From Basidioascus undulatus (Eukaryota), in NCBI GenBank assembly GCA_000826855.1, contig JTLS01000027.1, positions 1 to 42,636 on the forward strand: DNA of 42,636 bases. The letters are read 5' to 3'. This document shows positions 1,646 to 42,084 of this stretch, piece after piece. Position numbers and translations under genes: made by a program. The notes beneath the pieces are model-generated. The model ran no database searches and was not told where the DNA came from. It saw only the letters and a list, made by a program, of their open reading frames with translations. Position 1 is the first letter of the stretch. Each line of letters opens with the position of its first letter.

Positions 1646-4600
1646 TTACAAGTCGGCCTGAAAAGCGTTCGTGATAGGCAGACAGTCAACATTGGATATG
1701 TTGGCTAGGGGCGACGAAGGACTCACAAAGAAGAATGCGGTGTTGCGCGGGGGGATCGGGGCGGGGATGTGCTGCGGGATCTCGACGCCTTCGCCTGCGA
1801 GGTCGAGGAGCTTGATCTGCGGAGCGAACGCGGATTTCAGTTTGGACTCGTGGGATTTTCACAAGCGTGTCGGCTAGAAGGCTAATCTGACCTTGACGCC
1901 GAGATCGGTCAACGTCTGCCATCCCAGCCGAGTCCCCACGCATCAGTTCCACGGCCTCACTTCGAGATGTGACTGAGAGTGCTCACCTGTACCAGCTCAT
2001 TCGTCTGCGCGGTCGTCGCGACGCCCTCGTCGCGGAGGAACGCGATGCCGTCCACCCACTCGGAGAACTGCGTCTCGTCGACCGCAACGACATCCAGGAG
2101 CGGCGTGTCGTCCGAGAGGAGCAAGATGGAGAGCGGGCTCGGCGCGGGCCGCGCGGAGCTCGCGAGGGCGCCCGAAGGAATGCTTTGCCCGGTCACGGCG
2201 GCGGTGACGAGGGAGAGGTCGACTGCGGTCGGGGTGGAAGGGTGTGAGACGTGGAGTGCGATGGGATGGGAAGGGAAGAAAACGAAGCGTACCACGGTCG
2301 GGGAGGTCGTCGAGCCCCGGTAGGATGGATGACCGCTGCGGAGAGTCGACCCAGTGGATGAAGCGGCGATTTGGGGACTGTGGAAGTGTGTGAGCCGGCC
2401 AGAACAAGACGTCAGGGTACGAAGGGAACGCACGAGGCGAAGGAACCGATACGAGTGTGAGAGCTGCGCGCTGCTGCGGCTCGTCTCTCTCGACATGCGG
2501 CGGGAGGCGACAGGCGGCGTCGAGGATGCCGACATGAACCATCCGCCTTCGAGGAGACAGTTGATGCGCTGCTGCGAGACGAACTGGAACGCGTCGCGGT
2601 AGAGCCGGGTGCGCAACGTCCTGCGTCGGCGGCGTCAGCGTCAGCACTGGATTCCCTCAGTAGGACACAGTGAAATCAGCGCACCGTATCGGGGGCTTGC
2701 TCAGCACGTCGTCCTCGAGTTCAAGCTCCTGCAGCTGGCGCTCACTGCGCACACGCACGCTCAATCAACGAGGGGCGATGCGAGAGCGGAGCAATTTAGG
2801 CTGGGCACGCACCGAATCGTGCGATAATCGCTCTCGAGGAACTCGCGCTCGAGCTCGAACCAGCTCAGCTGGTTCTCGTTTGCCATTACCGATTTGACTT
2901 GCGAGCGGGTGAGCGCGGACACCCGCTCGAAGTCGGCAAACGTTGCGCCGCTGTCGTTCCACATGCTGTGGTTGTGGTCCGGTATCGCCCTGGTCAGCGC
3001 GATGCGCACAATTTGCAAGACGGCGAGGGGACGTACCGCATGAAGAAGCGCGTGACGAGGTCGTGTACGCGCTCGAAGGTGAGGAGGAACGGCCGGTACG
3101 AGGTCGTTGTCGCCGTTGTTGCTGCGCGCAACGGCTTCAGCAGCAGCCGCGAACCGAAGTGAGACGTACACGTACAGCCAGAGGAGTAGATCTGCCAGTA
3201 GTCTGCAAGCACGTCGACGACCTCGTTGGACATCTACAACAGTGTGTGAGCGCTTGGAAAGAGGATGGAGCGTCAAGAGCTGCGCACCTTCGCAACAGGA
3301 CACCTTCGTTCTTGAGATCTGCTATTTTGCTCGAGTACGAGCTGCGTAATGCGCATTTGTGAGTCTGGGGGATAGAACACTGAAGAACTAAAAGACAAGA
3401 CGCACGCTGGCGAATCGTTCGGGATCTTTCTTCGCGAATGCGGACTGCAGCACCGAAGGAAATGAGCAAGAGCGGCGAAGCCTGGAGTACCCCGCCAGAC
3501 GCACCAAGCAGTCAAGTCCCAGTAGCCCCTGCCCCTCAAAGTCACTCCGCAAGGTCGAGCTCTCGAACCCAAGCTTCGTCCAGTCGCGCCCGCCCACAAT
3601 CGGGTCCGGCAGATCCGCGGCCGCCCAGATGCCGTCGAGAGCTTCGCGTTGATCTCCGTTCGTCTCGGGAGACACGGGGGTGCGGCGGCGGGTGTAGATC
3701 ATACGGACGACCTGACAGGGCAACTGAGCTCAGGCTCTGATTGCGTGGGGCAAGGAAAGCTCGCACGTACGTGAGCCTGGAACTCGAGTATACTGGAAGA
3801 CAACTCGTCGTCGCGATAGCTGTTCATGAGCCGCTGTGCACAATCACTCGATCAGCTGTATTTTTGGCATGTGCGAACTATCAGACGCACTACAACAGCC
3901 TTGTTAACCTTGAGCTTGTGGAGCTCGGCGGTGAAGGGCTCCCATAACGCGTCTGGGACGTGGTGCAGCAGCGAGTTGATCAGGCCCATACTGCGCCCAA
4001 CAAGTCCATCAGTTCACTCCGTATCCGATAGTTCGGCCTGCCACTCACCTCGCTAGCGCCAGCGTAGTGTCGGCCGATTCTATTCGTTGCACCACCGCGC
4101 TCAAGAACGCCGGCGACTGTTGCATCGCGGCCCAGACCACCTCGAAGCCCTGTAAAGGGGCGGACGAGGACGACGACGTGTTGCCGCCGGCCCGCTGGCC
4201 CGAGACGACCAGGCGCTTCAGGATCGTGATGGCCGGTCGGCAGATGTTGATGGAATTGGCATGTTGGACAATGATGTCGGCGATCTGCGCGAGGAGTCAG
4301 ACCCGAGCAATGCAGTGGAAACGGAAATGCGGACGCACGCGGCTGACAAACTCCTGATCAAATATCTCCCAAGCGTAGTCGAGGAGCATGAGAGATTGCA
4401 GGGAGACAAGCGCGTACTGCAGGGCACGGGGATCGTCAGGACAATGAGCGTCCGTCGTAGCGCCAACTTTGGACTTACGGCCAAGGTGTTACCGGTGGCT
4501 ATTGAGATTATCTCGACCAGCTCTTTCAGACCATCGCGCCCGAGGAACGCCTCTGCGAACACGGGCTCCTTGATGTACTTTTGCAGCGAGAAGAGCGCGA

Positions 4601-5305: not shown

Positions 5306-5626
5306 GACACGGCCGTCGAGGGACGAATGGAAAGCGGCTTGATGCTTGAAAATGTATGAGCGGGTTATGTACGAAGAAGATGTGAGTGTGGCCGAGAGAA
5401 CGACGAGAACGTGGAGGTAATGTAGGATGGAAGGCAAGCTGCTCAACGACGCGCTCAGGGCGCGTCAACTCGCGAAGGCGGGCACGGAAGCAAATGCCAA
5501 CTTAACCGCGACCGCAGACCGCAGCCTCCTGCGACCTTCCTCACCCCTTTACCTGACGTTCTCGAAAAGCTCCATCTGAAATCTCTTACAACGCTCACAT
5601 CTTTAGAAGGCCACGAGAAGAGTCTG
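5306..5626. promoter_or_regulatory. Probable bidirectional promoter between the divergent ELMO and OPT genes
   Basis: The two ATGs face away from each other 321 bp apart; several CGCG motifs lie at ~5448-5510. Confidence 0.5.
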
Positions 5627-8600
5627 ATGGGCGACCGCGCCCGCAACCACAATGCGGAGGCTGTTGAGCTGGCACCGCTCCGCACCTCTCAGGACGACGG
5701 CGAGGTACCGAAGGGTTCGGAGGAGAGAAGCGATGATGGCTGGGGGCTTGAAGATGAGGAGGAGGTGGTGATGCTTCGCCGGAGGACAGAGATGGGGGAG
5801 GGAATGGGGTTGGACGCGGACGACCCGGTGTCGCTTGTCGCAAAGGTGAGCATTGCTGACTCCCTTGCTTATCGTTCGCGAGGGTGAGCTGAACCGCCGA
5901 CTGCCTGCAGGTCGTACCCGAGACCGATGATCCGACTCTTCCAACCTTGACATTCCGTGTAAGCTCGCTCAATCCCGCTCATCTTCCCATTGCTGACCAA
6001 CATTGCACAGGCTCTCGTCCTCGGCTCGTTCTTTTGCATCATCGGCGCAGCTTTCTCGCAGTTGTTCTTCTTCAAGTACATCGCTCAGCTTTTATCTTCC
6101 ACGATCAAGTTGCTCATAGATTGCTGCGTCTGGGTAGGGACAATGCTCCGAACTTCAGCAGCTTGTCAGACTTGTCCTCCTCCCTACGATGGAGCACGTC
6201 GTGCTGACGCTCGGTGCCAGCTTCGTGATCCTTGCTTCTTATCCACTCGGCAAATGGATGGCACGGGTGCTGCCCGAGCGCGATGTGTCCTTCCTCGGTT
6301 ATTCGTTCTCGCTCAACCCGGGGGTCAGTTGACTCGTCGCTTTGCCTTGCACGGTTGCTGAACCTTCCTCATACAGCCTTTCAATGTGAAGGAACACGTG
6401 CTACGTGGGTAGAGTAAATTCTAGCTTTCATTGCAGGTCTCATGGAGTCTTCGAACAGTCGGAACAATCGCGACTACGGGAGGTACCTCTGTACGTCGTC
6501 AAACCCATCCCTCGATGCCGGCAGCGTCATCATCTGGCTCAACGTACAGCGAACGGCAGGCATACGCAACCGACATCCTGTCCATCCAAAACCTCTTCTA
6601 CCACCAGGAAATGGGCGCCGTCGCTAGCATCACTCTCCTTTTGACAACACAACTCATCGGGTTAGTCTTCGTTTTGTAACTCTGGTGCGCTTGGCTTCAA
6701 TCCTGAACCATTCGCCTTGCAGCTATGGACTCGCCGGCATCGTCCAAAAGGTCCTCGTTAGGCCTCCCAAGGTACGCAGCGTCTCGTCTTGCTTCGTCCC
6801 GTCTTGCTAACGTTCCCGGGCAGATGTACTGGCCGAGTTCCTTAGTCACTGTTTCTCTCTTTACGACCTTTCACGACACCAACGAGACGACTCAGAAGAA
6901 GACACAGGACAAGCTCCACTTCTTGTACGACCGCTCATTTTTTTCTACATACGGAGCCGATTGTTGAGGCCCTCTCGGTACAGCATACTTGCGTTCACCG
7001 CCTGCTTCCTCTATCATAAGTGTTCCGATCTGGGACCCGGGGCAATGTCGCTGACATGATTCTCGGTTACTACAGTTCTTCCCGGCAGTTTTCATGCCGA
7101 CGCTGACTTCCATCGCCACGCTGTGTGTCATTAACAACAACTCACTCGTGATGCGCACGCTCGGAAGTGGGTACAAGGTCCGTTGAGCACGAAGCTTGCT
7201 CCTCATATAAGACGTTACTTGCAACTTAACAGTGCAGTATCCCTTACAAACCCTTTTGTGTTGACTTTCCAGGGATTCGGCCTCGGCAACATCTCGCTGG
7301 ATTGGTCGGCGATATCGACGATTGGACCACTCTTGTGAGGTTCTTCGTCCCGCGACTTTCCCGGAATGCTGAGCACATTCATCAGTACACCTTGGTTCGC
7401 TCAAGTCAACTTTCTGGTCGGCCTAATCGGCATGATGTGGCTTGTGACACCGATACTATAGTCCGTACGGCTCCTTTGTGTATCTTCCGGCGCGAAGCTG
7501 ACTCCGCCGCTGCAGCTTCTCTAACTTCTGGTAGGGGTTCCGTCACTATCATGGCACGGGTAGCGCTCACGCCTATAGATAGGGACGCGCTCTCGTTCCC
7601 TTCGCCTGTGACCTCGGGTCTGTTCGACTCCTCGTACAGAAGGTACGCTGCCCCTATGCAGCAGTACTAGAGCTTGGCTGATCTGCAACGGCCCGTTCTA
7701 GCTTCGATGTCAACAGCGTCTTGAACCCTGCTGATCTGACGCTGAATGAAGCGGGTATGTCAATAACCCACCTCAGTTGCAAGGCTGTCGCTGAAAGATC
7801 CATCTCTCTCAGCATGGGAGCAACACAAGCCGATGCTGCTCACCCCTTACTTCGCCATCTCATACGGACTTAGTACGTAGCTTCCTTGAGTAGGCATGCG
7901 AGCATGGCTGAGGCGCGGCGCGGACAGGCTTCGCTGCGCTCAGCTCCGTTGTCAGCCATGTACTTCTCTGGCACAGCAAAGACGTACGCTCTATATCTCC
8001 GCATCTTCGTCAAGCGTTCACTACTAATTTTCTCTGCCGCTCGCAGATCAAGGAAGCATTTTTCGAGCTCAACAGTGCGGATGTGCGTGTCGCCGTTTAT
8101 GACGACTAAGCGCGCTCACGACTAACTCTCCCTTATCACTTCCAATAGGACGTGCACAACAGGTAAGTCCTTCTTTAAATCTTTCTATGCTTTGGATACT
8201 TACCTCAATCCGGACTCGCAGAATGATGCGCAGATATCCAGAAGTCCCTTCCTCGTGGTTCTTCGCCATGTTGGGCGGCACGTTCCTCTGCGCGGCTGTG
8301 CTGTGCATTGTTACGCCTATTCAGCTACCAGTACGTCTAAATTGATGCCGCCGGATAATCAAGCTTACAGCTTTTGCGGCAGATTTGGGCGCTAGCTTTG
8401 GCGATTTTGATGGCTGCGGTCCGTCGCTGCCGGCTCAGACGCGTTCTCTCCGAAGCCAGCGCCTCACACATTATTATGCAGGTATTTCTGATCCCTGTTG
8501 GGATAATCGCCGCCGTGTCAGGTGCGTCGAAGAAAACGAACTGCTACGCGTCACATGCCAGTGCTGACTCGGTCACTCTCGCCGGGGTGCCCTTTCAGGC

Positions 8601-10024
8601 ACGGCCGTGGGCCTGAACGTCATTACGGAGTTGGTGATCGGCTTTCTCTGTGAGTATACACTTAGTCCTTGAACGCCAGCGCACTCTTCATCGCTGCTCC
8701 TCTTGCTCCTTCGACACGGTCGAGAGCGAAAGCGGTCTCGGCGGGCGGTAGATCCTGAACTGATCCTGCTTTCCAACCCAGTACCCGGCCGCCCCATAGC
8801 GAATGTAGCCTTCAAGTGTTTCGGCTACCAGGTGTGAACCTGACCGTGCCTGCTTTTGTCGTTTGCGCTCACAAGCGTTCTCAGGCCCTTGCGCAAGCGC
8901 TAGGTCTGACGGAAGATCTCAAGGTACGTGCTGGACTGCTTTAAACAATCTCAATGTGGTGGTTAACAATACAGAGTGCATAAAAGCTGGGCCTGTACCT
9001 GAAAATTCCGCCCGTAAGCTCGTGCAACGCAATTGTTTGTCGAACACAACGCTGACCTGTTTCTTACCGCAGCGCAAGATGTTCATCACTCAATCACTTG
9101 GGACGGTTATCGGTGCTGTTGTCAATTACCTTGTAGGTTTCGCTCTGCTCTCCCTCACAGTGCCCGAGGCTCAGTCCCACGGAAGGTCCTGTCATCGGTC
9201 ATATCCGCGAAGAGACCATATCTTGACGGCACGTTGGAAGACCCGACGGGTCGTAAGTCGTCCATTCGTTGTTCGCCTTTCATCATGTTGATGAGCTGGA
9301 GCACAGAATGGACCGGTCGCAGCCCGCACATCTTCTTCTCGGCATGTCATGTGATTTTTGACTTTCATTTCCGCTGTTTCGCTAACCCGAATAACTCTGC
9401 AGGCCTCGGTCATTTGGGGGTGCGTAGGAAGTGCGCGATGCAACTGTCCTTTTTCGCTAACCAGAGCCCGCTGCTTCTGCAGTCTGATCGGACCCGCCCG
9501 TTTCTTCTCTGGCAAATATGCCCTGCTGTACCTCGGCTTCCCGCTTGGCTTCCTCGCACCTCTGATACCTTGGCTGCTTCACCGTCGCTGGCCAAACGTC
9601 GGGTTCAAATCCGTCACTTTCCCGATTGTCTGTCACGCAGCGATGCTCGTGCCGCAGGTGTGTCCATCTCCAAACACATCTGCTCGACGACCTCCTGACA
9701 GACGAAAGCGCGCAGGTACCGACCAACGTTATTACATCCGGTGCAATTGCGGCATATCTGTCGCAAGTTTACGCTGCTCGCAAGCACCCAAAGTAAGCAC
9801 TCAGCGTTCTCCCAAGGGTGGTTCTTTTGGTTTTTGCTGACAGCCCTGCGCGCAGGTGGTACGCGGCCCGCAATTACACTCTCAGCGCTGCGCTGGACGC
9901 CGCGACGAGTGTGAATGCGCTTGTGGTTTACGCCGTCTTCACCCTCTTCCTGGGCGGCTGGAGCGGGCCGCATTGGTGGGCGAATCCAACGGGAGACGCA
10001 GAACATTGTACGCCGGGGACGTGA
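5627..10024 (+). CDS. OPT family oligopeptide transporter (~34 introns, including one AT-AC and one GC-AG)
   Basis: Spliced translation has VVPETDDPTLPTLTFR, SLNPG|PFNVKEH, TTQLIGYGLAG, MYWPSSL, DVHNRMMRRYPEVPSSWF, GLNVITELVIG, PGRPIAN, DLK|LGLYLKIPP|RKMF, SVIWGLIGPARFF and NYTLSAALD, all OPT hallmarks. Stop TGA at 10022-10024. Confidence 0.95.
7016..7073 (+). other. Non-canonical AT-AC intron in the OPT gene (58 nt)
   Basis: TAT C|ATAAGT...GCTGAC...TTACTAC|AG TTC TTC CCG restores F-L-Y-Q-F-F-P; no GT/GC-AG pair keeps the frame. Confidence 0.75.
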
Positions 10025-10609
10025 AGGGGCGTATCTAGAGCTTGTTACACTTATATACCCAGACATATTTTTCTTGCGGTCGAGATGATGAGTTGAAGCC
10101 TGGCAATGAATTCTGTTCAAGCTTGTTGAGCAGGGAATGATGCTCGTGAGATGGATGATTGTCAAGTGCCAATTTGAGCATCGACGTGGAACGGGCACAC
10201 AGGCAATCCGTCCCTCGTGATGGTCCCCGAAAGCTCCGGAATCTTTCATGTTCTTGCGATTCTCAACAAAGATAATGAGTACTTCGAAGCACAACCGCAA
10301 TTGCAACCACCACCGTCGATGTCGCGCGACATCTGCCAGCCCTTCTCCTTCGCCTGACCAGTCAATCCCCATCGTCGCATCGCGGCGCTGCTGTTAGTGG
10401 TCGGCGTGGAGCAATAAATGAACACGAATGTGCGTCCAGCCTTCCGGAGATCGATTCTCTTCACAGAAAACCAACTCGAAATAGTGCCAGAGACGCGATT
10501 GCTTTCATCGCGCTCCCCGTCAGCAAAGCTGTCACGGCGACGCATCCCCCTTGGCTTGGCGCAGCAGATCCGTTCCCCGCAATGTCGTTTTAGCCGTCCC
10601 AACCATTTT

Positions 10610-22330: not shown

Positions 22331-23327
22331 CTATACCCCATGGCCCCCCGAACCCTTCTTCTCCATCTCCTCTGCCACCTTCACCAATTCCTTCTCCCTC
22401 ACGCTCCGTCGCGCAGCGGTCAGCCTGACGCGTCCCCACCGCTCGCGGCCCTCGCGCGCCTCGCCCAGGCTTCGCGCGGCGTCAAGGTGCCGCGCATCGC
22501 GCACATCGAGGATCGTGCTCGCTAGGATTGGGTGTGGCTTTGCTGAGGAGGGGTCGGAGGGGGAGGCGGAGGCCCATGGGAAGTGCAGCGGGTATTGGAT
22601 CGCGTTGGCGATGAGCGTCTGGCGGGAAGGGCGGTAAGTCGCAAGTCGCAAGTAGATAGAGCACGGTTACAGGACGTACCAAAAGGATGAGTCCAGAAAT
22701 GAACACCCCGTTCGAGGTGTAGTACGGCTCGTGCTTCCCTCCTCCCTGACCGGGATGGTTCTCCGCCGACCAGTAGAACTCGTGATCCCAGCCCTCGGCA
22801 TACCTCCTCCCCGAGTGCGCACCGGCGTTGCTCGCCTGCCCTCTGGTCCCCCAACTCGCCCCTTGGCCCCTCCACCGGTTCTCCAAGTCTCTCATTTCCG
22901 CCTCCCACCTCTCCCTGCTCCCGCCGCTGCTGAAGGACAGGCCCCCCCACCCCTCTCCCGTGCGGAGGTATCGTACCCTACGCGTATCGTCGCGCAGCAG
23001 GTCGTACGCGCGCACGAGCGTCTTGAACCGCTCTGTGCGGTTGAGCGCGCCCACATCAGGCGAGGACACCGAGGGCTGCGTGTCGGGGTGGTGGATGCGG
23101 ATGAGCTGGTAGTATCGCGACTTGATCTCGCGTCCGGTGGCGGTGCGCGGGAGGTGGAAAATGTCGTAGGGCGTGGGGTTTGGTGTAGAGGGATAGGGGA
23201 AGGAGAGCGGGGAGGAGGAAGGGGTGGCGTAGGACCGGCGGGGGAGGAGGCTTCGGCAGGCTGGACAGAGGTGTGGGGCAAGGAGGAAAGGTGAATTTGA
23301 GCGGGAAGAACGTATGTTTGGGCGCAT
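22331..23327 (-). CDS. JID1: Mitochondrial J-domain (DnaJ) protein, Jid1-like; one intron
   Basis: Arg/Ser-rich presequence (MRPNIRSSRS...RRSYA), then FPYPSTPNPTPYDIFHL...IKSRYYQLIRIHHPD (HPD motif)...RFKTLVRAYDLL, a hydrophobic segment NGVFISGLILL|TLIANAIQY, and stop at 22331. Confidence 0.8.
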
Positions 23328-23437
23328 AATGCAGAATAATCTGGCAGAGCGTCTGACTTCCGCTGGATATGAAAAGACAAGATAGCTGGTTGTTGAGAGC
23401 GTCGCGGTGGCCATTCGCGACGCATCCCAATCTAGGG

Positions 23438-23471
23438 GATCGCGTTATCACGATCGCGTTATCTTACGCGT
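23438..23471. promoter_or_regulatory. Tandem CGCG boxes upstream of the J-protein gene
   Basis: Direct repeat GATCGCGTTATC at 23438-23449 and 23452-23463, followed by ACGCGT (MCB-like) at 23466-23471. Confidence 0.45.
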
Positions 23472-26846: not shown

Positions 26847-28768
26847 ATGTCCTCAGGCGCTCTCGCACACCCTCCGGAGCCACTCCCGGACGACGATGTC
26901 CACACCGAGACGTCCAGAGCCCAGGTGCGTCCAGCATACACTGAGCTGCTTCCAGATGCCCCGGGCCTCATTACTTGGTCTCTACAGCGCCAAACCGAGA
27001 CTGCCATCCGTGCCCTCTTCCACGGCCCCCCAACATCCACCTCGCCCTTCACGCTCTCCCTCACCCTCGAGCGATCCAAGCACATCGCCTACTGCTCGCG
27101 CACGCTCGGCGGCCTCCCCGCAGGCTGGAAGGCCCTCGACGCCTCCAAGCCGTGGCTCATGTACTGGACGGTCCACTCGCTCCTTACCCTCGGCGCGCAG
27201 CTCGACCCGGCCTCCAAGACCCGCGCCATCTCCACCCTTCTCCGGTACCAGCACCCCAGCGGTGGGTTCGGCGGCGGGCCAGACCAGATACCCCATCTGC
27301 TGCCCACTTACGCGGCGGTCTGCGCACTAGCGATCGTGGGAGGGAGGGGGAAGGGCGAGGGGTGGGTTGCGATTGATCGGGAGGGCATCTATCGGTTCTT
27401 CATGAGGATGAAGCAGAAGGACGGGAGCTTCATCGTTCATGACGGCGGGGAGGTTGACGTCCGGTGCGTATTGATCCTTTCCCCACTATAGTGTCGCCTT
27501 GGCTAAGTAATTAGGGGGATTACAGCGGCGTGTACTGCGTATTAGTCGTCGCTACTCTTCTCGACATCCTCACTCCGGAGCTCGTCGACGGCACTGAGCG
27601 TTTCGTCTCCTCGTGTGTAGCATCTTCTGTCCCGCACTCTCCTCACCTGCCTTCTGATTTTTCCACCCTCACTTTTCACAGCTGTCAAACCTACGAAGGA
27701 GGCTTCGCCGCATCCTCGCACCCCTTCTACCCCTCCCCGACCTCCCCCCCTCTGTCCACCCCGAACCCGCCGCTCGGCGAAGCCCACGGCGGGTACACCT
27801 CTTGCTCACTCGCGTCCCTCACTCTCCTCCGCCCGCTCTCCTCCTCCGCCTCCGGATTCCCCCCCTTCGACCTCGGCGCGCTCGTGCGCTGGTCGGCGCA
27901 CATGCAGGGGCACCCGATCGAGGGCGGCGGCTTCCGAGGACGCTCGAACAAGCTCGTTGATGGGTGCTACAGCTGGTGGGTGGGCGGGACGTTCAATGTT
28001 CTCGAGGCGTGGATGCCGAAGGATGAGGCCAAGGAGGAGGAGCTGGTCAAGAGTGCGAAGGTTCAGGTGGAGGAGGGCGCGGAGAAGTCGAACGGGGGCA
28101 GCGCGGAGTGGGTGGACGAGGATGGTAAGTAGTTGGGTTTGCGGAGCATCGCTCGTCTTGCTGTTCGCAGCGCTGACAGTCAGATCCTGCAGGCGGTCTG
28201 TTCGATCGTGTCGCGCTGCAGGAGTTCATTCTCCTCGCCGCACAAGATCCCAAAGGCGGCCTGCGCGACAAACCGGGCAAGTGCGTACCATACTCTGTTC
28301 TTTCTCCATAACTATATACTGCCGTCTTTCCTGACACTGGCGCTCCCACTAGGCCCGTCGACGCCTACCACACCGCGTACAACCTCTCCGGCCTCTCCGC
28401 AGCGCAGCACCACCTCACCTACTCTCCCCGCCTCGCGGCCGCCCAATCCGCGCGCTTCAACCCTACGCCCGCGCCCGGCACGCCAGCCGTGTTCGCCCCC
28501 GAGGGGCGCGAGGAGCTGAGGAGGAACGCCTGGGGCGCAGCGGTCGCGTGGGAGGCGGACGAAAAGGAGCGGTGTGTCGTAGGAGGAGCGGAGAACCTCA
28601 CGGTGCGTTCCGGGTCTTGGCATGACGCTGGCAAAGTTGTAGCTGATGATTCCTCCGGGAGAACAGAACCCCACCCATCCCCTTTTCAACGTGACCACGT
28701 CCCGGGCATTCGCGATGATGGAGTATTTCTATGGGCAGGAGGAAGGCGCAGCGCTCAAGCGGGTTTGA
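26847..28768 (+). CDS. RAM1: Protein farnesyltransferase beta subunit (5 introns)
   Basis: LDASKPWLMYWTVHSL, GGFGGGPDQIPHLLPTYAAV, GGEVDVR|GVYC, CQTYEGGF, GEAHGGYT, GGFRGRSNKLVDGCYSWW, GGLRDKPGK|PVDAYHTAYNLSGLSAAQH and NPTHPLFNV. TGA at 28766-28768. Confidence 0.96.
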
Positions 28769-38526: not shown

Positions 38527-41500
38527 CTACTGGTTCATGAGGTTGTAGAACGCCTCCTGCGGGACGCTGATCCGGCCGATCGCCTTCAGACGCTTCTTGC
38601 CTTCTTTTTGTCTGGAGACACCAGATGAACTCGGGTCAGAACCCATTTCGTGGTGCATAGGAGAGGCAAAAGGTAAGCACTTGTTCAGGTGCTTCAGCTT
38701 GCGATCCTACGTGCGAGAAAATGTCAGCGTCGGCGTACGGAGGCGGGGTAAGAGGGGACGCACGTAGTGACCACCGTACTAAAGCACAAAGCGAGATAGG
38801 CGCTGGTTAGTACGAAACAGAGAAGCAGGATACCGGAACGAAGGAAAAGCGTACAAGACCAGCCTGTCAAAAGCACCAGGTGGACGTAAGTACCACGCCG
38901 TGCTACGGAGCAGGGAGTACGTCTGCGACTTACAGTCACGTCCTTCCGCACAGCCTTGATCCTGCTCACCCACCATTAGTCAGAACCTTCCTCCCACGAC
39001 TTTCTGGCCCTGAGCAGACACACGTCTCCCTTGCAATAGCCTTCGACCCGATCGCAGCCTGGATGGCAACCTCGAACTGCTGACTGCAGAGCCCCCCATA
39101 TATCAGCTCCCTCGCGCAGAACAAGTACGGGAAGGAGAAGGCGTACCGGGGGATCACGTCCTTGAGCTTCTTCACCCACTCCCGGCCGGTCGCGATCGCC
39201 TTGGAGCGGTGCACGATCATCGCGAGCGCGTCGACGGGCTCGCCGTGCACGAGGAGGTTGAGCTGCGCAGCGCCTCATGCTTTCAGTCCAAGATCTCGTC
39301 TTCGAGTTGGTGGGCGGCAGACGGACCTTGACCAGATCCGACTTCTCATACCCCGCCTGCTGGTACTCGAACGACGCGTAGCCGGACGTGGCGGATTTGA
39401 GTTTGGAGTAAAAGTCGGTGACGATCCTGCGTGGCGGACCATCAACAACTGCAGTAAGTGCGAGCTGACCTGTGGGGAAGAGGGGAGGAACGCACTCGGC
39501 CAGGGGCAGCTTGTACCGCAGCCTAACGCGCGGCGGCGTCGACCCCTCGAGGTACCCGAAGTGCAGCTGGTCCCCGCGGTGGGTGTTCAGGAGGTCCAAG
39601 ACCGGTCCTGCGAGCGCACCACCAGCATCAGCTGGGCGAACGAGGAGGGAGGGGGTGAAGGGGACGCACCGATGAACTCCTCGGGCACGATCAGCTCGGC
39701 ATTCACGATCGGCTCTTGAAGTTCCATTTTGCGGCCGCCGGTCATCTGCGACGGCTCCGGGAACTCGGAGGGGACGCGGACGGTCACGGTCTCGCCGGAG
39801 GGGTGGATGACTGTGCGGTGAGAGGGGAGTGGGAAGTTAGGATCCGGGGTGGACTTAAAAACGAATGTCGGGAAAGCGGACCGTTGTACGGCACGGTAGG
39901 CGCGGTCTGTTTATGGTTCGGGGTGGGTGGTGAGTGTCTGGACTTCAGTGTGCGGCAGAAGTAGATGGATGACGTACAACGATCACTTCCGAGTCGTACT
40001 CGTCTTCCAGTCGCTGACGGAAGACATCCTACACCCGTCGTCCAACAATCAACCACATAAGCTCACCCCTCACTCCTGGTTCTCGCGTCTGCCCCGCGGC
40101 GCTCACCAGATGCAGCTGCCCCAAGAACCCGATCCTGCACCCTTGCCCGAGCGCAGCGGACGACTCGCGCTGGACGGTGACGCTTGCGTCGTTGAGGGTG
40201 AGCTGCTCGCGTGGAGAACGCTTGCGTAAGTCGTCCTGGCGAGCGAGAAGAGGGGGTGAGGGGGGACGCTGGACACACCCGCTTAACCGACTCCTCCAGC
40301 CGGAGGAAGTCCTTGTTGTCGACGGGGAAGACGCCTGCGGACTTGGGTGAGCATGCCGGGCGATTCGAGGGCGAAGGGAAGGGGAGGAGGACGGACCGGC
40401 GAAGACCATGGATTCTGTATTGGGTAAATTGAACTTGCGTGCGAGATATGTTGGAAAGAGCGGAAAGGACGCACTGGCAGGCTTGAACCCCGGCAGCGCC
40501 TCCACAGGTTGTCCAACGCGGTAGATCGTGTCCCCGATATGAGCTGCCTCGCCTCCAGTCCATCAGTCCCAGTCCAAATACCAGGCCCCCTCCCCAAACC
40601 GCGCGCGCACCCTCAGCAGACTGCTTCATCCCGCAAACGACGTAGCCGACTTGCCCGGCCTGGAGGTGCGCCGTGGGGACCTCCTCCGGGTGGAGCACGC
40701 CCACCTCGCTGACGGTGTACTTGCGCCCGCTATGCCAGGAGGCGATCTGGTCGCCTGGGGTAATTGGAGGATGGGAGAATGTTAGGGGGAGGGAAGGGGA
40801 GAGAGTGCGAGGGAAGGGGGGGGACGGACCCTTGCGCAGCGTCCCGGATTCCAGTTTGACGAGCGAGACGGCCCCGCGGAAGTTGTCGAAGCTTCCCAGG
40901 AACCCATAGTATTAGCGATTTCCACAGGCGAGTGTGAGGGTGGAAATGTGGGAGAGGGAAACCCACAAAGAATCAAACAGCAGCGCCTTGAGCGGGCCGT
41001 CGACGTCGCCCGCGGGGGCAGGGCAGCGCTCGACGATGGCCTGCAGGACAGCCTCGACCCCCCGCCCGGTCTTGGCCGAGATGGGGAGCGCGGACGACTC
41101 GGGGAGGTCGAATGTTGCGGCGATCTCTTGTGCGACGGCGGGCGCGTCGGCAGCGGGGAGGTCTATCTGCGCGGGGGGATGAGCGCGTGCGAAGGAGGGG
41201 GGAAGGGGGGAGAGGTACTTTGTTTATCACGGGCACGATTGTCAGGCCCCGCGCGGAGGCGAGCTCGAATACCGAAAGCGTTTGGGCTTGGATCCCCTCT
41301 GTGCGTTGGGCTGCGTGAATGAAAAGGGAGCAGGGTTGGAAGGGAAGGAGGGCCCACGTGTTGCGTCTACAAGGAGGAGGGCGCCTTGGCACGCGGTGAG
41401 GGAGCGGGAGACTTCGTATGACTGGAGGAGAGGCTTCAGTGTGGGCCGGCTTGGGAAGCTGGGAAGGAGCGCACGAAGTCGACATGGCCTGCCGACTGAA

Positions 41501-42084
41501 TAAGCAGGTGTGTTCGGAGTGAAGGATATCATGAATGTGAGGCGCACCAGGTGTATCAATCAAGTTCAACAAGTAGTCCTTCCCCTCCCAATTGTAGATC
41601 ATGCTGCCGGCCCCGCATCAGTTCCCTGCCCAGACGAAGCTCACGAAATAACGCACCTCGCACTGTTCGCCTTCACCGTGATCCCTCTCGCCCGCTCCAC
41701 CTCCAGCTTATCCAAGATCTGCTTGTTCCCGCCCTCCGGGATCGTGCCCGTCATCTCGAGCAGCCGGTCTGACAGGGTCGATTTCCCATGGTCGATGTCT
41801 GCCGAGCCTCCCTCCTTTCAGTACTCTCTCCTCTCTTCACATATCGGAGGGTAGTGCGCACGAGCTATGACCGAAAAGTTCCTGATCTGCTCCGGGGGAA
41901 AGTCGGCCATGTCGATCTGCTTCTTTCGTGCAGCCGCCTTCTTGGGGATCGTCGCTGCGAGGGCGGCTGCGCTCTGGCAGAAGGTGCGGCTGGCTGCGGG
42001 GAGGGCGGTGTGCGGGCGGAGAGCATATTGGAAGGCGAGGAAGGTGTATCGCCTGCGTGAGGTTAGGCTTGCTGGGGTGAGCAT
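38527..42084 (-). CDS. GUF1: Mitochondrial translation factor GUF1 (LepA/EF4) (~24 introns)
   Basis: Presequence, then [94 protein letters not shown] and [34 protein letters not shown] at 38527-38529. Confidence 0.97.

Follow-up and report, generated by a model that had tools for sequence, protein, structure and literature searches.

An AT-AC intron, most likely removed by the major spliceosome, in an OPT transporter gene of Basidioascus undulatus

The OPT gene and its junction at 7016-7073

Contig JTLS01000027.1 of Basidioascus undulatus, analysed as a window of 42,636 nucleotides (nt), carries on its plus strand a gene for an OPT oligopeptide transporter. One of the introns of this gene, at 7016-7073, begins with AT and ends with AC. 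Very probably, it is a genuine intron that the gene requires for its function, and the major (U2-type) spliceosome is the most likely agent of its removal. The genomic sequence, the exact removal of 58 nt in a transcript contig, the conservation of the peptide and the absence of U12-type signals were all observed directly.

The gene model was built with a protein-to-genome aligner permitting GT-AG, GC-AG and AT-AC introns, with the OPT protein P0003 of Naganishia albida as a guide. It was amended with the joints of a transcript run (X3, described below) and by direct reading of the sequence. The final model holds 32 GT-AG introns, one GC-AG intron and one AT-AC intron, with lengths of 51-132 nt and a median of 59 nt. 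Once these 34 introns are removed, neither a stop codon nor a frameshift is left, and the gene is intact except for one unusual junction. End to end, the spliced product shares 390 identical residues (51% identity) with the 759 amino acids of P0003. The stop-to-stop open reading frame behind the junction matches OPT proteins of Naganishia; among six candidates, four proteins reached E <= 0.01 with 75-80% identity, and all four, P0003 included, bear the domain PF03169. Matches to PF03169 were also found in 6 of 15 stop-to-stop fragments, in ascending profile order from position 32 to 486. Each of them stays below the cut-off of 25.8 bits because the exons are short. By these matches, the gene encodes an oligopeptide transporter of the OPT family (Pfam PF03169). 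The protein matches, the best of which were 75-80% and 52-76% identical, include no annotated protein of the source genome itself.

At the junction, the plus strand reads ...CTC TAT C, then the intron ATAAGTGTTCC...GCTGACATG...GGTTACTAC, then AG TTC TTC CCG.... Codon position 1 falls on 7015 in the upstream frame and on 7076 in the downstream frame, and the excised length must therefore be 1 modulo 3. Retention of the intron leads to a stop codon at 7057-7059. A first-pass annotation, made from the sequence alone, had proposed a 58-nt AT...AC intron between TAT C and AG TTC TTC CCG, in a gene of about 34 introns that is otherwise intact. It had also pointed to an AG 2 nt past the AC end as a competing acceptor, and to the frameshift that GT7020 would cause with AG7075. 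The sequence and the final model agree with it on each of these points.

The choice of splice sites was examined by evaluating every removal of 30-150 nt in the exon block, and the 1103 distinct products that kept the frame and had no stop were aligned to P0003. By alignment to this Naganishia albida homologue, the AT..AC product ranks first among them. Where P0003 reads ..FFYQFLPSVFFPTLTS.., the spliced gene has ..FLYQFFPAVFMPTLTS..; the wider context is ..CFFYQFLPSVFFPTLTS.. in P0003 and ..CFLYQFFPAVFMPTLTS.. in the AT-AC product. Pairing GT7020 with AG7075 removes 56 nt, shifts the frame and leads to stops, and pairing it with AC leads to stops as well. AT7016 with AG7075 (60 nt removed) shifts the frame into a stop. 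The frame is kept with GT7022..AG7088 (67 nt) and with GC7042..AG7075 (34 nt), but these rank only 230th and 120th of 1103 and are contradicted by the complementary DNA (cDNA) contig; the best canonical alternatives forfeit or swap conserved residues. An antisense origin was rejected, the reverse complements of the three boundary pairs that fit the joint (GT..AT, TA..TG and TG..TA) including no canonical pair.

A stop-free antisense frame of 176 amino acids on the minus strand (6892-7422) overlaps the junction. Pfam gave no match for it, and base composition probably accounts for it.

Table 1. Positions in the window of the OPT gene, of the AT-AC intron with its parts, and of other features of the gene
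Feature	Position	Strand	Basis and remarks
OPT oligopeptide-transporter gene, coding sequence	5627-10024	+	start codon to TGA; 35 exons, 34 introns, 763 amino acids
AT-AC intron, 58 nt, phase 1, within the codon of Gln269	7016-7073	+	sequence, X3 contig, excision ranking
Upstream exon, 32 nt, ending ...TAT C (Tyr and first base of the Gln codon)	6984-7015	+	X3 joints 6924 to 6984 and 7014 to 7073 in one contig
5' splice site ATAAGT (A at +1, rest as in the U2-type consensus)	7016-7021	+	sequence, donor score
Putative branch site CTGAC	7051-7055	+	motif match; A7054 lies 19 nt from the last intron base
3' splice site TAC, with C as final intron base	7071-7073	+	sequence, X3 contig
Exonic AG right after the intron (bases 2-3 of the Gln codon), potential competing acceptor	7074-7075	+	sequence, X3 contig
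Nearest GT, a weak donor and decoy (GTGTTC, lacking G at +5)	7020-7021	+	donor score
Downstream exon, 104 nt (..AG TTC TTC CCG...), encoding the conserved FFPAVFMPTLTSIATLC	7074-7177	+	X3 piece 7073-7175; 75-80% identical to Naganishia OPT
Micro-exon, 15 nt	7516-7530	+	letters between the ends of an X3 compound joint
Micro-exon, 14 nt	8149-8162	+	gene model only
GC-AG intron, the only one of the gene (GCATGT...CAG, 61 nt)	9342-9402	+	consistent with the X3 compound joint 9343 to 9482
Micro-exon, 17 nt	9403-9419	+	letters between the ends of an X3 compound joint

Contigs and splice signals at the junction

Contigs of three public runs were compared with positions 5500-10100 of the window. Run X1 dates from 2014 (study P1) and run X2 from 2025 (study P2), and a single sample underlies both X2 and X3. 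X1 and X2 each hold one DNA contig spanning all 4601 bases, without a single differing letter or gap, at word depths of 17.8 and 48.1. These contigs bear on an error in assembly or sequencing, with a true genome of ..TATCAG/GTAAGT.. and a normal GT-AG intron, which would give the same messenger RNA (mRNA), ..TATCAGTTC.., as the AT-AC intron does. However, the two runs belong to studies eleven years apart, and both equal the window without an indel. The loss of GG in the assembly, which the first-pass annotation had singled out for checking, is therefore excluded, and an error of either kind is extremely improbable.

Run X3 is read as cDNA, given that the OPT introns are missing from its contigs. 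A contig of 1219 letters and depth 13.6, record 3 of this run, joins 7014 to 7073 and skips 58 nt. The ends of this joint are written CA..TA, with two letters that fit on either side, and the joint is equivalent to an AT..AC intron at 7016-7073. Among the 15 joints listed for this record, 13 are simple GT..AG joints, one is compound, with a 15-nt micro-exon, and one is the joint from 7014 to 7073; all 13 simple ones coincide with introns of the final model. Between the pieces 6822-6924 and 7073-7175, the record has exactly 31 letters, equal to 6984-7014, so that nothing is inserted at the joint. The intron was removed at AT..AC-compatible boundaries in this one contig of one run, and the mRNA junction Tyr-Gln-Phe that had been predicted from the sequence is seen there.

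X3 behaves as a transcriptome of the sample of X2 and would be usable for a genome-wide survey of junctions. Several candidates of the gene model were discarded or replaced. A candidate intron at 5558-5622 is false, the X3 contig being continuous across 5520-5843, and a candidate donor at 5837 gave way to 5846 on the evidence of X3. A candidate GC-AG intron of 135 nt at 8014-8148 really consists of the GT-AG introns 7984-8046 and 8083-8148, which flank a 36-nt exon (judged by eye; it fits P0003). Neither these two introns nor the 132-nt intron 8650-8781 are among the 15 of 31 X3 joints listed. Another X3 contig, of low depth (2.4), joins 7633 to 7812 with two letters between and would omit the 53-nt exon 7702-7754; this could reflect exon skipping, another isoform or a misassembly.

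As for the splice signals, a position weight matrix for donors was built from the 33 other introns of the gene, with +1 left out and with leave-one-out scoring. ATAAGT scores 4.75 bits, higher than 19 of the 33 other donors, and such scores are reached at just 1.2% of the positions of the gene. GT7020 has -2.75 bits, higher than one of the 33 real donors. The other introns have G at +5 in 32 of 33 cases and T at +6 in 21 of 33, and they end with CAG (27), TAG (4) or AAG (2). A CTNAY motif occurs in 20 of them, at a median distance of 17 nt from the 3' end (range 13-31). The first-pass annotation had described a CTGAC branch about 20 nt from the end and a typical intron size. Indeed, the A of CTGAC lies 19 nt before the last base, within the range of the gene, and the length of 58 nt compares with the median of 59.

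In contrast to this likeness to the other introns of the gene, the signals of a U12-type intron were not found. Of the eight bases of the U12 donor ATATCCTT, the donor ATAAGTGT has only four in common with it, and positions +4 to +7 all differ. The U12 branch motif TCCTTAAC is expected about 10-15 nt from the 3' end; its best match, TCGGTTAC, agrees at 5 of 8 bases, with its end just 3 nt before that of the intron. The earlier statement that U12 donor and branch signals are absent was thus borne out, and judged by these motifs the intron is a U2-type (type II) AT-AC intron and not a U12-type one. Removal by the minor spliceosome nevertheless deserves attention. In animals and plants, AT-AC ends are reported to be mostly U12-type (PMC7072748), and rust fungi yielded isolated candidates for U12 and U4atac in an older screen (PMC2396436). 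Moreover, an Rfam scan of the 42.6-kb window gave no match and says nothing of the remaining genome, so that minor small nuclear RNAs (snRNAs) may be encoded beyond it. Apart from the poor donor, the poor branch motif and its wrong distance, a survey of more than 3000 genomes argues against this explanation, as it reports that neither Ascomycota nor Basidiomycota have convincing minor introns (PMC10639083). A U12-type intron is very unlikely here.

According to the literature, a U2-type AT-AC intron has a normal U2 donor except at +1 (PMC1557818), and its donor consensus is described as "a very strong /ATAAGT" (PMC5029451). Such introns are rare: in five species, 24 were counted out of about 610,000, or 0.003% (PMC1557818). 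AT-AC is also mentioned in passing as an accepted class of junction (PMC5389616, PMC3936741, PMC12230235); other text matches to "AT-AC", such as PMC3091305, are domain strings of polyketide synthases (KS-AT-ACP). The U2-type assignment made in the first-pass annotation is thus supported by the donor consensus, the donor score, the branch distance and the reported lack of minor introns. Likewise, the sequence and the reported lack of minor introns in Basidiomycota suggest that removal depends on U1, U2, U4, U5 and U6 snRNAs.

Excision by some other route would mean a non-spliceosomal enzyme, or the major spliceosome acting at CA..TA or TA..CA. The placements CA..TA 7015-7072, AT..AC 7016-7073 and TA..CA 7017-7074 are equivalent and cannot be told apart in the mRNA. 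However, CA..TA and TA..CA belong to no splice class known to us, and of the three placements AT..AC alone is one. For the AT-AC intron of yeast RPL30, the authors left the mechanism open (PMC5029451). In the OPT gene, unlike in RPL30, the donor equals the /ATAAGT consensus exactly and the branch motif is a standard one, and excision by another route has hardly any probability.

Related genes and the surroundings of the locus

A scan of metagenome contigs gave 159 matching stretches, 20 of which were confirmed as loci. Glutamine (Gln) stands right before F[FLI]P in all 20, in line with the first-pass annotation, which had suggested looking for a conserved Gln in orthologues. The position of the junction is uninterrupted in 17 of the 20 loci, and two others (L016 and L017) have an apparent intron 7-8 codons upstream, as judged by eye. 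In one locus, L001, with 80% identity to the Naganishia-like P0001, there is an intron here; it is of the GT-AG type and lies 2 nt downstream.

The L001 intron (2956-3015; 60 nt, GTAAGG...CTGAT...CAG) is in phase 0, right after the Gln codon CAA, and it is at its 5' end that it starts 2 nt downstream of the window intron. Its acceptor AG, directly before a Phe codon, stands at the place of the exonic AG in the Gln codon of the window gene, and is preceded by TC, not AC. By eye, the two introns have no evident similarity beyond their splice signals. They are too diverged to align, and their lengths of 58 and 60 nt are therefore no evidence for a deletion.

These comparisons also bear on an artefactual joint, that is, template switching by reverse transcriptase at the 2-nt CA repeat, or a misassembled contig, in a gene that is broken here. 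The 2-nt microhomology at the junction and the reliance on a single assembled contig speak for such an artefact. Nevertheless, the 58-nt skip restores both the frame and the Gln conserved in all 20 loci, the skipped piece resembles the introns of the gene itself in size, donor and branch motif, and a relative has an intron at this place. Furthermore, the skip is the consensus path of a contig of depth 13.6 that also bears neighbouring normal joints, and the remaining 33 introns and all exons are intact. An artefact is accordingly judged very improbable.

Tentatively, and with somewhat more doubt than confidence, the AT-AC intron and the GT-AG intron of L001 may be considered two states of one old intron, a single frame-neutral step leading from one to the other. 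Loss of 2 nt at the donor (..TAT CAR/GTAAG.. to ..TAT C/ATAAG..) would put A at position +1 of the intron. This A would move ligation from the AG to a pre-existing AC 2 nt upstream, and the old acceptor AG would end up as positions 2 and 3 of the conserved Gln codon, with the frame kept. The opposite change, from AT-AC to GT-AG by an insertion of 2 nt, would equally take one step. The direction cannot be set because there is one intron-bearing comparator and the outgroups lack the intron.

Several further observations were made on the related genes. The 60 nt of the L001 intron are a multiple of three without an in-frame stop, and retention would add 20 residues rather than truncate the protein. 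An AT..AC "intron" that the aligner placed at 1650-1703 of L001 is spurious and lies in the unconserved N-terminus. The OPT gene of the window is far more intron-rich than L001, which has no introns matching 6925-6983 and 7178-7272; only some intron positions are common to both, for instance before ..VPxTDDP... In the OPT model of Naganishia adeliensis (P0004), ..VVVGT is followed directly by FLPSVFF.., without the six residues VCFFYQ of the N. albida protein P0003. This gap is probably due to a mis-called donor at the homologous intron.

Elsewhere in the window, gene fragments were found at 1957-2634 (minus strand), 22482-23444 (minus), 27515-28132 (plus) and 38976-41617 (minus), with a PH domain, a DnaJ domain, a prenyltransferase repeat domain and a GUF1/LepA-like GTPase, respectively. 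The best matches of the GUF1-like fragment are two Wallemia proteins, with 54-57% identity over 34% of the query.

Mechanism, known systems and meaning

For the AT-AC intron at 7016-7073, the acting spliceosome, the branch point and the pairing mechanism are what we infer. U1, and later U6, would pair with TAAGT (+2 to +6) and fix cleavage before A7016, where the A7054 of the CTGAC branch would attack. In the second step, the first-position A would pair with a last-position C rather than G, according to the known rule for first and last nucleotides. As a first-base A favours a last-base C, the AC at 7072-7073 would be used in place of the AG, and ligation would take place after C7073, not after the AG two bases on. 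C7015 and AG7074-7075 would then rebuild the conserved Gln codon. Were ligation to occur at the AG, or GT7020 to serve as donor, the message would be out of frame and soon run into stops. The intron could cost some expression.

Several points weigh against the removal of a genuine intron by the major spliceosome, or against the strength of its support. The branch point at 7054 is a motif match only. U11, U12, U4atac and U6atac may be encoded in the host outside the 42.6-kb window that the Rfam scan spans, and the placement of the host among the basidiomycetes rests on best matches (Naganishia for the OPT protein, Wallemia for the GUF1-like one). As for the DNA, X1 or X2 may itself be the source of the window, and surely independent DNA comes from only one run. 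The transcript evidence is a single assembled contig of one run, X3, which is labelled "DNA?" (a guess); none of the three runs is on record as RNA. Moreover, contigs show the presence of a spliced form and not its share, and rare forms are dropped from them.

A yeast intron whose first base was changed from G to A and whose last base was changed from G to C was reportedly engineered by Parker and Siliciano in 1993. The window intron resembles it in the pairing of a first A with a last C, which is expected to let the second step proceed; this pairing would therefore lead to the use of AC despite the AG 2 nt downstream. The engineered intron is a laboratory double mutant with lower efficiency, whereas the window intron is natural and its gene depends on it. 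In yeast and human, a change of the first base from G to A is reported to be rescued, less efficiently, by a change of the last base from G to C (PMC1557818). In a mutated yeast intron, AT-AC was the most efficient pair after GT-AG, and the standard introns of budding yeast are described in the same source as making no use of AT-AC (PMC6726248).

Among natural cases, the U2-type AT-AC introns of animals, such as those of human SCN4A and SCN5A (PMC1557818), share with the window intron the AT...AC ends, the /ATAAGT donor, an ordinary branch and constitutive use in a coding gene. In contrast to the human type II cases, for which dependence on major snRNAs was demonstrated, the window intron has a basidiomycete host and a length of 58 nt, and such dependence is deduced. 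The U12-type AT-AC introns have only the terminal dinucleotides in common with it; donor and branch differ, and the minor spliceosome is reportedly missing from the group of its host (PMC10639083). The nested intron of RPL30 in Saccharomyces cerevisiae (1-2% of mRNAs; PMC5029451) and the SUT635 protointron (PMC6726248) are likewise cases of AT-AC splicing, in a member of the Dikarya without a minor spliceosome. Unlike in these S. cerevisiae events, the AT-AC form alone yields the conserved protein in the window gene, and the donor is a textbook /ATAAGT.

In other fungi, AT-AC introns are reported to make up 0.03% of the introns in SnowyOwl gene models backed by RNA sequencing of Aspergillus niger, Phanerochaete chrysosporium and Thermomyces lanuginosus (PMC4084796), and fungal genes for xylanases have been proposed to contain type II AT-AC introns (PMC1557818). 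The SnowyOwl models also represent rare AT-AC introns of Dikarya, one basidiomycete included; they are bulk counts, whereas the window offers a single intron with DNA, transcript and comparative evidence. In the part of the open-access literature that was searched, without supplements, neither an individual AT-AC intron in a tremellomycete nor a 2-nt boundary shift between GT-AG and AT-AC was found described.

The intron is a well-documented example of a known rare class and not a new principle. Its new element is the 2-nt offset from the GT-AG intron of the Naganishia-like L001, which hints at conversion by a 2-nt indel at the donor, with a compensating shift of the acceptor by 2 nt.

For genome annotation, a gene finder limited to GT-AG and GC-AG introns cannot build this transporter and would shorten the protein or shift the frame. 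The rule that a first A goes with a last C, known from mutants of budding yeast and a few animal genes, seems to be valid in basidiomycetes too, and the AG two bases downstream provides a built-in test of site choice in the second step. Furthermore, the 2-nt offset suggests a simple route by which AT-AC introns arise or revert. If this is true, the rule by which the major spliceosome pairs first and last bases would allow the boundary of an intron to "slide" by 2 nt, with the gene unbroken throughout.

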